64,000 nt of DNA. Source: Noviherbaspirillum sp. GTDB lineage: Bacteria; Pseudomonadota; Gammaproteobacteria; Burkholderiales; Burkholderiaceae_D. Location of the stretch: NCBI RefSeq assembly GCF_035254685.1, contig NZ_DATFAI010000043.1, positions 17,604-81,603 on the forward strand, in the 5' to 3' direction. Within the stretch, counting starts at the first letter, position 1; every line of letters begins with the position of its first letter. Position numbers and translations under genes: made by a program. The notes below the pieces were generated by a model, which saw nothing but the letters and a program-made list of their open reading frames with translations, was not told the origin of the DNA and made no database searches. Below are positions 3,554-60,627 of the stretch, in pieces.

Positions 3554-4780
<1,227 letters not shown>

Positions 4781-43324: not shown

Positions 43325-43888
43325 ATGATGAGCGAGATGGATGCGATCGTTTTCTTCGGTATTGTGTTTGGCGGCCTGCTTCTCTGGTTCATTTTCGGAA
43401 GAGACAAGCCGGCGCGGTATCGCACCAAAAACCTGCTGACGGGCCGGGAGCGCGATTTTTTCTATCGACTGCGACGCGCGCTTCCCGATTGCCTGATTTT
43501 TCCGCGCATGCCGCTGTCGGCGCTGATTGAGCCGACGGGCGTCGGCAGCGCGCGCCAGGCCGCGCATGCCATGATTGACGGGTTGAAGGTTGGCTATGCC
43601 GTATTTGACATGGGAATGCGGCTTGTCGCGGTCGTCGAACTTGACCATGGAGTCCGCCCGAGCCGTCGGGCGACGGCCAGGGATACGTATCTGGCGGGGG
43701 CGGGAATCCAGGTTGTTCGCTTCCCCGCTCGCCGTTTGCCGTCGGAAACCAATATCCACGCCACCATCTATTCCCGGCCGGCGTCCGCTGGAAAGGGGCT
43801 GCCTAGCGGGAGCCACGCCCAGGGCGAACTGATCGAATATGTACCGCAGCGCTCCCCTTGGCGAAATACCGCCAACGTCCACAAGTAA
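43325..43888 (+). CDS. Membrane-anchored DUF2726-family protein
   Basis: N-terminal TM helix; LLTGRERDFFYRLRRALP, IFP, AVVELD, RD..L..AGI.V.R motifs. Confidence 0.75.
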   Translation: MMSEMDAIVFFGIVFGGLLLWFIFGRDKPARYRTKNLLTGRERDFFYRLRRALPDCLIFPRMPLSALIEPTGVGSARQAAHAMIDGLKVGYAVFDMGMRLVAVVELDHGVRPSRRATARDTYLAGAGIQVVRFPARRLPSETNIHATIYSRPASAGKGLPSGSHAQGELIEYVPQRSPWRNTANVHK

Positions 43889-43973
43889 AATACGCAAGGC
43901 AAAGTGGACATGCCTTCCAGAAAAATCGGCGAACAAGGGGTGGAGGAGGGCAATTTAATGCTTTAATTCGGTC

Positions 43974-44690
43974 ATGGCCAGACTTCCGCGACTTGTCGTT
44001 CCCCATCAGCCGCACCATGTCATTCAGCGCGGCAATGACCGTCAATCCATCTTCCGGGATGCGGAGGATTATTCCATTTTCCTGCGCTGGCTGCGTGAAG
44101 CGGCGAAACTGTTCAAGGTCGCCGTGCATGCCTATGTCCTCATGCCCGACCATCTGCACCTGCTCGTTTCCCCTTCGGACGAAACGGGGCTGGGGAAAAT
44201 GATGCAATGGGTCGGGCGCCACTATGTTCCGTATTTCAACACGAGGTACCACCGCTCCGGCACGCTTTGGCAGGGCAGGTTCAGGGCGACGGTGATCGAA
44301 TCCGAGGCTTACTTTCTTGCGTGCAGCTGTTATATCGAATCCAATCCGATGCGGGCCGGCCTCGTGCAGGACGCAGCCGAATATTCCTGGTCCAGCTTCA
44401 GTCATCACGCCGGGGTGAAACCTGATCCGCTGCTTACGGACCATCCGCTGTTCTGGGCGCTGGGAAATACCCCCTTTGATCGTGAGATGGCCTACAAAGA
44501 GCTGATGAATCAAGGTCTTGCACCACGCGAGATCGAGGTCATCGGTCAGGCCACCCTGAAGGGCTGGCCGCTCGGCTCGGATAAATTCAAGGCCATGCTT
44601 GCCAGGCAGACCAATCGACGTGTCACTCCAGCCAAGCGCGGCCGGCCACCCAAACCAAGACAAGACCCAGGCACGACCAACGCCGGTTGA
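43974..44690 (+). mobile_element. RAYT-like HUH Y1 transposase/nuclease (IS200/IS605 superfamily), no element ends recognised
   Basis: MARLPR, HHVIQRGNDRQSIF, AYVLMPDHLHLL (HUH), GTLWQGRF, YIESNPMRAGLV (catalytic Tyr) and YSWSS. Confidence 0.88.
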
Positions 44691-44731: not shown

Positions 44732-44798
44732 TTCACTCTGTCCCCATTTAATTGTAAAAATAATTCCCATATTTTTAATTTCACTCTGACCCTGTTTA
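44732..44798 (+). repeat. Two imperfect 19-bp direct repeats, 48 bp apart, in the AT-rich gltB upstream region
   Basis: TTCACTCTGTCCCCATTTA (44732-44750) and TTCACTCTGACCCTGTTTA (44780-44798). Confidence 0.8.
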
Positions 44799-44869
44799 TT
44801 TAAGTTGAACAATCTATTGCGCTGCACTATCCTTCAAGGTCAATATCACCAAAGTTGCGGAGAAAGCTT

Positions 44870-49546
<4,677 letters not shown>

Positions 49547-49613: not shown

Positions 49614-51077
49614 ATGGGAAAAGTAACCGGCTTTCTGGAATACCAACGCCTCCACGAGGCGAGTGAAGCACCCCAACTGCGCAAGAAGCATTACAAGGAA
49701 TTCGTAATGCATCTGAGCGACGAAGACGCGAAGATTCAGGGCGCGCGTTGCATGGACTGCGGCATCCCCTTCTGCAACAACGGGTGCCCGGTCAATAACA
49801 TCATTCCGGATTGGAACGACCTCGTCTATCACGGCAACTTCAAGGAAGCGCTGGACAACCTGCTCTCCACCAACAACTTTCCGGAGTTCACCGGGCGCAT
49901 CTGCCCCGCGCCGTGCGAAGCCGCCTGCACGCTGAACATCAACAGCAACCCGGTCGGCATCAAGTCGATCGAGCACTTCATCATCGACAAAGGTTGGGAG
50001 AACGGCTGGGTCCTGCCGCAGATTCCGGCCACGAAGACTGGCAAGAAAGTCGCCGTGGTCGGCTCCGGTCCTGCCGGCCTGGCCGCCGCGCAGCAGCTCG
50101 CCCGCGCTGGACACGACGTAACGCTGTTCGAAAAGAACGACCGCATCGGCGGCCTCCTGCGTTACGGGATTCCCGACTTCAAGCTGGAAAAGTCGCACAT
50201 CGACCGCCGCGTCGAGCAAATGAAGGCTGAAGGCGTCACCTTCCGCACCGGTGTTTTCATCGGCAAGGAGTTTACGTCGAACGTCTACAACTGGGCCAAG
50301 GAAACGATCTCTCCTGATCAGCTGAAAAAGGATTTCGACGCTGTTGTGATCGCTGGTGGCGCCGAGCAGCCGCGCGACCTGCCGGTACCGGGGCGCGAGT
50401 TGAAGGCCGTTCACTTCGCGATGGAATTCCTGCCATTGCAGAACAAGGTCAATGCCGGCGACAAGGTCAAGGACCAGATCCTCGCCACCGGCAAGCACGT
50501 CATCGTGATCGGCGGTGGCGACACCGGATCCGACTGCGTTGGTACGTCGAACCGGCATGGCGCGGCTGCGGTCACGCAATTCGAACTGCTGCCGATGCCG
50601 CCGGAACAGGAAAACAAGCCGCTCGTCTGGCCGTACTGGCCGACCAAGCTGCGCACCTCGTCTTCCCACGAAGAAGGATGCGGTCGCGACTGGTCGGTCG
50701 CGACCAAGCGCCTTGAAGGCAAGAACGGCAAGGTCGAGAAGCTGATCGCTGCCCGTGTCGAATGGAAGGACGGCAAGATGGTCGAAGTGCCGAATTCCGA
50801 GTTCGAGCTGAAGGCCGACCTGGTCTTGCTGGCAATGGGCTTCGTGTCGCCGGTGCAAACCGTGCTGGATGCTTTCGGCGTCGACAAGGATGCGCGTGGC
50901 AATGCCAAGGCGACAACGGACGGAGAAGGCTGCTACAAGACCTCCGTAGACAAGGTGTTTGCAGCGGGTGACATGCGCCGCGGTCAGTCGCTGGTCGTCT
51001 GGGCAATCCGGGAAGGGCGTCAATGCGCCCGCGCAGTGGATGAATTCCTGATGGGTTCGACGGTTCTGCCGCGTTAA
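49614..51077 (+). CDS. gltD: Glutamate synthase small subunit
   Basis: [27 protein letters not shown] and IGGGDTG. Confidence 0.97.
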
Positions 51078-60599: not shown

Positions 60600-60627
60600 C
60601 GTCATTCCCGCGCAGGCGGGAATCCAG
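60600..60627. repeat. REP-like palindrome (CGTC-type, ATTCCC...GGGAAT core)
   Basis: CGTC-ATTCCCGC-gcag-GCGGGAAT-CCAG between hisD and the methyltransferase. Confidence 0.8.

Follow-up and report, generated by a model that had tools for sequence, protein, structure and literature searches.

A single-copy TIRYT-type HUH transposase gene fixed upstream of gltBD in Burkholderiales, a putative box-binding factor at the gltB promoter

The locus described here lies in a 64,000-nucleotide stretch (hereafter the window) of contig NZ_DATFAI010000043.1 of Noviherbaspirillum sp. (assembly GCF_035254685.1, positions 17,604 to 81,603 of the forward strand). All positions given below are those of the window, unless another genome, contig or locus is named. 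The gene under study is an intact open reading frame at 43974..44690 on the forward strand, which starts with ATG and encodes a 238-residue Y1/HUH protein of the TIRYT type, similar to subclass 2.1 of the TnpA-Y1 transposases. It is neighboured upstream by a DUF2726 gene (43325-43888) and downstream by gltB (44870..49546, forward strand) and gltD (49614..51077, forward strand), encoding the large and the small subunit of glutamate synthase, respectively. Translation of gltB probably starts at the ATG at 44870, which is preceded by GGAG at 44859-44862. As stated in the preliminary description of this DNA, no tnpB accompanies the gene, its neighbours being DUF2726 and gltB. There is a single copy in the 5.38-Mb genome. 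The GC content of the gene is 0.586 (0.678 at third codon positions, GC3) with a window value of 0.60; its composition is slightly below that of its neighbours and is not foreign. The intergenic region immediately downstream is AT-rich (GC 0.374). Both a genome-like codon usage and the AT-rich region had been recognised beforehand.

The HUH motif, H60-L-H62, is encoded at 44151..44159 and the catalytic tyrosine motif, Y120-IESNP, at 44331..44348; both were read off the forward-strand sequence and are intact in this genome. The tail RRVtPAKRGRPPK, containing the AT-hook core RGRP, occupies 44616..44654 on the same strand, with KRGRPPK at 44634-44654. All three elements were found where the preliminary description had placed them. 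The protein matches the Pfam family Y1_Tnp (PF01797; 47.1 bits with a gathering cut-off of 23, E=3e-12) over residues 14-124, and the same family is matched by 81 of 81 orthologues. A structural model calculated with AlphaFold2 from 81 orthologues reached a mean predicted local distance difference test score (pLDDT) of 90.4 and a predicted template-modelling score (pTM) of 0.85. The best match of this model in the Protein Data Bank is E. coli TnpA-REP (4er8; E=5e-8, TM 0.70 on the target), followed by the TnpA proteins of IS608 and ISDra2 (2vjv, 2xma). The HUH-fold core extends to about residue 127 and contains WQ at residues 99-100. Residues 128-238 form an extension, which comprises a conserved stretch (S141, H144-H145, H157 and W161), C-terminal helices (residues 167-213) and a basic tail (residues 214-238) that is modelled as disordered, pLDDT being 43-56 across residues 221-238. 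The context of the HuH motif is DHLH here and [DN]H[LVI]H family-wide, the tyrosine motif being YIE[LS]NP throughout the family.

Judged by the features described for these classes, the protein fits the TIRYT group, or TnpA-Y1 subclass 2.1 (probably 2.1.1), which corresponds to Group 1 of the RAYTs (REP-associated tyrosine transposases; REP, repetitive extragenic palindrome). The preliminary description had called it RAYT-like, which in the REP-associated sense was not borne out. The NCBIfam model REP_Tyr_transpos (NF047646) scores 78.1 bits, below its cut-off of 80. Neither flank holds a REP array or hairpin, as had been noted before for the hairpins of the short upstream gap, and the flanking 16-mers are all unique in the genome, none being repeated. 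A REP-associated RAYT was rejected on account of this score and of the missing flanking REPs. An IS200/IS605 element was likewise rejected, given the single copy, the absence of tnpB and of hairpins, and a score of 17.8 with the IS200 model NF033573 (cut-off 55).

A canonical RAYT of the same genome, used as a positive control, does show repeated flanking hairpins. This separate gene (L022:1360-1899, reverse strand, equal to G000:C41 ~166.0-166.6 kb) encodes 179 residues with the motifs PDHLH and YIHFNPVKHGYV. A direct repeat of ~60 nt and GC-rich hairpins, TGTTGGGCTTTGCAGCCCAAC, lie on either side of it, so that the whole resembles a REPtron. The third Y1_Tnp match of the genome, on C25, contains an in-frame TGA. 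The genome also holds ~168 copies of a repeat core, GTGTTTTCCGTGGACA (e.g. G000:C1:4124-4201), often as inverted pairs ~60-80 nt apart in a REPIN-like arrangement. There is no copy of this core in the window, and the three Y1-transposase loci are all more than 1.5 kb away from the nearest copy. The hairpin GTCATTCCCGCGCAGGCGGGAATCCA at 60600-60627 of the window, called a REP in the preliminary description, was rejected as a related REP, since it is one of ~10 genome copies of TTCCCGC-N3-6-GCGGGAA, a family unrelated to the boxes described next.

Between the stop codon of the gene and gltB there are two boxes, direct repeats of ACTCTG(T/A)CCC followed by an A/T tract. Box 1, TTCACTCTGTCCCCATTTAATT, is located at 44732..44753 with its core, ACTCTGTCCC, at 44735-44744; box 2, TTCACTCTGACCCTGTTTATTT, is located at 44780..44801 with its core at 44783-44792, 48 bp after box 1, both on the forward strand. 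The reverse complement of the boxes, GGGG(A/T)CAGAGT (GGGGACAG for box 1), fits GGGGWSAS (W, A or T; S, G or C), the published terminal-inverted-repeat consensus around TIRYT genes, which are RAYT-like and lack REPs (PMC3733652). A second match to this consensus, GGGTCAG in reverse complement, is less exact. At the other end of the gene the upstream-region alignment points to a degenerate remnant of a left, inverted end box at 43909..43929 (forward-strand coordinates), adjoining a -10-like AAAAAT (43921-43926) of the gene's own promoter. Of the bracketing by inverted repeats described for TIRYT genes, the right end is present here as two direct boxes, and the left inverted copy is degenerate. 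The preliminary description had stated that no mobile ends could be identified; this holds for the upstream partner in its decayed state, and has to be revised for the downstream side, where two TIRYT-type boxes are present.

The boxes are conserved in relatives. Among 89 distinct Oxalobacteraceae loci (those left after pooling of the sets described below), at least two boxes occur in 87, of which 85 have them spaced 48 or 49 bp apart, and the distance from the boxes to gltB is 80-89 nt in 78 of the 89. At the Undibacterium loci L052, L055, L061, L066, L069, L072-L074 and L081 the box pair is found ~300 nt before the gltB ATG, which implies a long leader or inserted DNA. The inverted upstream box is intact in 45/89 loci. 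In these relatives it forms a third box ~50-60 nt before the start codon and touches a conserved TAAAAT (e.g. L009, L020), which gives the full TIRtron layout. Loci with DUF2726 have mostly lost it; a few of them still have an upstream inverted match (L057, L075 and, more distantly, L027). DUF2726, once considered a possible partner of the transposase gene, was rejected as such, being found only at Noviherbaspirillum loci and in a few metagenome bins.

The boxes of the window have no hairpin potential (z = 0.35 and 0.77). They are half-sites, and some relatives with intact motifs have a perfect palindrome; the palindromic box of one such relative, L119, has a strong hairpin potential (z = -5.5). 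The pattern ACTCYGWCCC has five copies in the genome (Y, C or T), two of them at this locus, and GTCTGWCCCC, the form found around paralogous genes (see below), has three copies compared with three for a control pattern and is thus not dispersed here.

Box 2 ends 3 nt short of a -35-like hexamer, the first element of a block TTGAAC-N17-TATCCT at 44805..44833 (forward strand) that we take as the putative gltB core promoter. It was recognised as a footprint over 84 Oxalobacteraceae loci; in the genus alignment of the gap only the two boxes, this block and the gltB ribosome-binding site are conserved, the remainder being unalignable. The spacer of the block, which includes TTGCGCTGCAC at 44811-44827, is near-invariant over the 84 loci, beyond expectation for a spacer, and may represent a second operator. 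A sigma-54 promoter was rejected by eye for the conserved block, there being no GG at -24. No Rfam elements were found in the intergenic region; elsewhere in the window, 4686-4780 (forward strand) matches the Rfam family anti-hemB (Burkholderia RNA 7) with 60.2 bits (gathering threshold 49.5). The promoter assignment is backed by likeness to a mapped one. In Burkholderia cenocepacia J2315, the transcription start site of gltB (BCAL0289) was mapped at 317647 (PMC4603805). Carried by distance to a Burkholderia locus of our set, this site falls 6 nt past TATATT, with the boxes at about -98 and -61. By analogy, the Burkholderia layout would represent the same architecture as that deduced for the window (about -100 and -52).

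The gene was found in 23 of 24 genomes of the genus, at 60-89% identity, and the single genome without it is 71% complete. It lies directly upstream of gltB on the same strand in 20/20 genus loci fetched. The same layout was seen in 80/80 further Oxalobacteraceae loci, from Herbaspirillum, Undibacterium, Collimonas, Herminiimonas, Paucimonas, Oxalicibacterium and Keguizhuia; pooling of these sets left the 89 distinct loci used above. Across the order, an even sample of 121 genomes showed gltB adjacency in seven families, i.e. six beyond Oxalobacteraceae, and, where the N-terminus of gltB reaches 77% identity or more to that of the window (15 genomes), in 14. The statement of the preliminary description that gltB has a similar gene before it elsewhere in the Burkholderiales was therefore correct. 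Exact-sequence look-ups, made with one representative each, supplied the names outside Oxalobacteraceae, namely the Burkholderia cepacia complex, Polynucleobacter, Hydrogenophaga, Roseateles/Mitsuaria, Derxia, Bordetella and Limnobacter. These orthologues are currently annotated as 'transposase' or 'hypothetical protein'. At two loci (L126, L127) an inserted gene separates the transposase gene from gltB, and the boxes remain just upstream of gltB. Four sampled genomes (L128, L132-L134) have neither an upstream gene at gltB nor boxes. At the Burkholderiales loci L109, L119 and L121 the upstream neighbour ends in a dGTPase-like ADYI(A/S)GMTDRYA.

The gene is under purifying selection. The ratio of nonsynonymous to synonymous substitution rates (dN/dS) is 0.01-0.13 for the closest 70 among 81 close pairs. 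Single copy, one fixed locus and purifying selection agree with the view taken earlier that the gene is immobile, and the checks that had been proposed on copy number, dN/dS and synteny with gltB were carried out with this result, gltB adjacency being broadly co-inherited. Distances between the proteins are correlated with those between the gltB nucleotide sequences (Mantel r=0.58, a value reached by none of 999 permutations), and the gene and gltB trees have 27 of 72 splits in common, compared with 0.24 expected at random. The congruence is substantial and incomplete; the conflicting splits are considered below.

To examine the origin of the gltB-linked genes, 36 of their proteins were placed in one tree with 27 homologues from elsewhere in the order. 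Of the latter, 26 form one clade (SH-aLRT 99). The gltB-linked label requires two changes on this tree, compared with 20.4 when shuffled, and monophyly of the gltB-linked set was not rejected by the approximately unbiased (AU) test (p=0.48). This unrooted tree, in which some branches are long, would agree with a single ancient capture and vertical descent from it.

Catalytic residues have been lost repeatedly within this lineage. H60, H62 or Y120 is missing in 12 of the 89 Oxalobacteraceae orthologues and all are intact in 77/89. H60 is kept in 82/89 and H62 in 81/89, with replacements such as QxQ, QLH and HIA, and Y120 in 86/89, with F, S or A in the remaining three. On a tree built without these columns, catalytic loss requires at least nine independent changes. 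In the other families, 9 of 13 sampled orthologues are without catalytic residues, among them those of Burkholderia (QVQ, Tyr to Val), Roseateles (Tyr to Ser), Derxia, Bordetella and Limnobacter; the dead Burkholderia protein belongs to a 255-member cluster across many cepacia-complex species. Pairs lacking HUH still show dN/dS of ~0.10, and a pair lacking the tyrosine 0.045. Because HUH and tyrosine are repeatedly lost under continued purifying selection, catalysis appears dispensable for the conserved role, and processing of single-stranded DNA (ssDNA), suggested in the preliminary description as the conserved function, is unlikely to be it.

Other positions are better kept than the catalytic ones. 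The mean column identity across the orthologue alignment is ~68%; H14, H52, Y54, S141, H144-H145, H157, W161, GNTPF and R170-E171 are invariant in 89/89 proteins. So is G223-R224-P225 in the tail, where GRP is also found in 12 of 13 distant orthologues and is looser in paralogues. By its sequence, KRGRPPK is a candidate AT-hook, a motif that binds the minor groove of A/T tracts; the boxes are followed by ATTTAAT and TTTATTT.

The homologues that are not linked to gltB differ from this lineage. All 27 keep HUH and tyrosine, in the stereotyped forms TNHVHLL and YIELNPVRA. Paralogous TIRYT genes at such loci are ringed by related boxes, GTCTG(A/T)CCCC, and the genomes bearing them are enriched in these boxes, with 16-43 copies compared with 0-2 for the control. 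One paralogue, in another Noviherbaspirillum (L111, G008:C1:431500-441200), is 45% identical and has intact HUH and tyrosine motifs; ATCGAGTCTGACCCCATATA boxes occur in nearly every intergenic gap of this region, 11 in 9.7 kb. Of the 17 GTCTGWCCCC copies of that genome, 12 lie within ~26 kb (G008:C1:413-440 kb), and a similar clustering of boxes over ~110 kb was seen in genome G036.

Several known systems resemble the one described here. Closest are the TIRYT genes and TIRtrons (Di Nocera, De Gregorio & Rocco 2013, PMC3733652), with which it shares a RAYT-like Y1/HUH protein, the absence of REPs and GGGGWSAS repeats, its relatives even showing the full inverted-repeat layout. Unlike in TIRtrons, the left repeat has decayed here and the right one is doubled in direct orientation, the box pair is not dispersed in the genome, the cassette keeps to a single host promoter in different families, and orthologues repeatedly lose catalytic residues; none of these four differences was found in PMC3733652. 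With TnpA-Y1 subclass 2.1 (Quentin et al. 2018, PMC6006769; Bertels et al. 2017, PMC5581495) the protein shares its length, 238 residues being the subclass median, as well as YIE(S/L)NP, the W-Q motif, a Ser motif past the core, a C-terminal extension, the lack of REPs, prevalence in Betaproteobacteria and low copy number. It differs in its HuH motif, which is DHLH instead of the tabulated NHVH or NH[YF]H, and in that the gltB lineage is syntenic and largely vertical, whereas the subclass has a patchy distribution suggestive of horizontal transfer (PMC6006769). The subclass is treated as REP-less and of unknown function (PMC6006769, PMC5581495). As Quentin et al. (2018) analysed only sequences with both HuH and Y motifs (PMC6006769), the dead orthologues lay outside the scope of that study. 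E. coli TnpA-REP (4ER8) and its REPtrons provide the best structural match and are likewise single-copy and domesticated-looking, with Y---NP; in contrast to them, the present system lacks REPs and REPINs, has ~90 additional C-terminal residues and scores under the equivalog cut-off.

A search of the literature on gltB together with tyrosine transposase or IS200, and on BCAL0288, returned no description of the gene. To judge from the literature searched, neither the fixed linkage to gltB nor the boxes within the promoter nor the repeated decay of catalysis seems to have been described before. Transposon-derived regulators are known in other settings, such as the TnpB-derived TldR and eukaryotic transcription factors derived from transposases. 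Here too catalysis would have been lost or be no longer needed, and selection would keep the protein together with its former end sites at a host promoter. Unlike those proteins, the present one is a Y1 protein of the HUH type instead of RuvC or DDE, involves no guide RNA, and its regulatory role is proposed from sequence comparison.

The observations to be accounted for are the family and fold of the protein, its single copy, its fixed synteny with gltB, purifying selection, the conservation of the boxes and the repeated loss of catalysis. We favour, with a confidence slightly above an even chance, the explanation that the gene product is a domesticated factor which binds the boxes at the gltBD promoter and does not need catalysis for this role. 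We infer that the protein binds the boxes and that binding affects gltBD. In the preliminary description, repeat generation, local recombination, and binding and regulation of the nitrogen-assimilation promoter had been offered side by side as functions; the comparative data favour the last of these.

The proposed course of events would be as follows. A TIRYT-type element became fixed upstream of gltBD in the ancestor of the Oxalobacteraceae, the Burkholderiaceae and Comamonadaceae-like and Alcaligenaceae-like families, and would have been inherited vertically since. The function conserved would be sequence-specific DNA binding, not transposition, the protein recognising its own former end boxes, ACTCTG(T/A)CCC plus the A/T-rich tract. 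The core of the box may be read by the HUH fold together with the C-terminal helical body, and the A/T flank by the RGRP AT-hook tail. With the box pair locked at about -52 and -100 from the presumed gltB start, binding would modulate gltBD transcription. Where the inverted left box has been kept beside the -10 element of the gene, autoregulation would probably be added; in this genome the left box would have decayed, beside a genus-level DUF2726 gene inserted upstream. In its widest form, the proposal would be that an ancestor of the classical families of Burkholderiales exapted an HUH transposase as a transcription factor dedicated to gltBD, with its former ends as operators, and that many lineages, the Burkholderia cepacia complex and Bordetella among them, have since been losing catalysis independently of one another. 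We advance this wider claim tentatively and give it rather less than an even chance.

A number of points weigh against the favoured explanation. The 48/49-bp spacing would place the boxes on roughly opposite faces of the helix, with no obvious dimer geometry. A search of the C-terminal 99 residues against Pfam, with E up to 10, found no known DNA-binding domain; the AT-hook is suggested by a short motif, and a Pfam search for it gave no match, the motif being too short for a profile. The block TTGAAC-N17-TATCCT agrees with the sigma-70 consensus at 8 of 12 positions, and a sigma-70 scan made no call. Of the 44 supported splits in the gene tree, 19 conflict with a supported gltB split. H60, H62 and Y120 are 91-97% conserved in Oxalobacteraceae and intact here, and a catalytic role may persist in most lineages. 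Finally, it could be another regulator that conserves the boxes.

The explanations that compete with a box-binding factor are, by weight, a catalytic host nuclease, boxes belonging to a different regulator, and repeated targeted insertion. The gene product could be a still-catalytic domesticated HUH nuclease that nicks or joins ssDNA. It would do so at the boxes, e.g. while the region upstream of gltB is being replicated or transcribed, or in trans at other sites, and this chemistry would be the host function in those lineages that keep HUH and tyrosine, like this one. Since both motifs are intact here, ssDNA nicking may still be possible in this genome. Retention of these motifs in 77/89 Oxalobacteraceae orthologues exceeds that of an average column (~68% identity), and the fold matches TnpA-REP and IS608 TnpA. 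We nevertheless consider this explanation unlikely, given that at least nine independent catalytic losses have left purifying selection unchanged, that 9/13 orthologues in other families, including the 255-member Burkholderia cluster, are dead yet otherwise intact, that the boxes lack the hairpin which is the usual Y1 substrate, and that the genome contains no extra or rearranged box copies.

A somewhat smaller chance is given to the boxes being operators of an unrelated gltBD regulator, or UP-like elements, with the gene as a long-term neighbour having a different, trans-acting function. Against this, the same type of box flanks paralogous TIRYT genes away from gltB and matches the published terminal-repeat consensus of this group, the four sampled genomes without the upstream gene are all without boxes, and in many relatives the promoter of the gene itself has an inverted box. 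In its favour, upon insertion of another gene (L126, L127) the boxes stay with gltB and not with the stop codon of the transposase gene, and the extreme conservation of the core-promoter spacer hints at further factors. Least of all, and in our view very improbable, the gene could belong to an ordinary TIRtron or IS-like element which is active from time to time and favours the site upstream of gltB, the linkage then resulting from repeated insertion instead of common descent. Related genomes do hold motif-intact paralogues and dispersed boxes, and the congruence between gene and gltB trees is imperfect. An active element is hard to reconcile with the single copy in this genome, a dN/dS far below 1, the same position in 89/89 loci with a 48/49-bp spacing in 85 and a constant distance from box to gltB. 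The gltB-linked set moreover stands apart from the paralogue clade, its monophyly not being rejected, the left end is decayed here and many orthologues are catalytically dead.

RAYT- and TIRYT-type Y1 proteins are widely suspected of domestication, and we know of no host function for the REP-less subclass. The lineage described here offers one defined locus, with two candidate operators at a fixed distance from a central nitrogen-assimilation promoter, and orthologues that form a natural series, some of them catalytically intact and others dead. If a box-binding factor is the correct explanation, a transition from HUH transposase to regulator in bacteria would be seen at several of its stages, the copy in the window representing one that is catalytically intact and has lost its left end. 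The genes next to gltB that are annotated as 'transposase' or 'hypothetical protein' in Burkholderia, Bordetella, Herbaspirillum and relatives would then be reclassified as host genes, and gltBD regulation in Betaproteobacteria may turn out to include an element that has so far escaped recognition.

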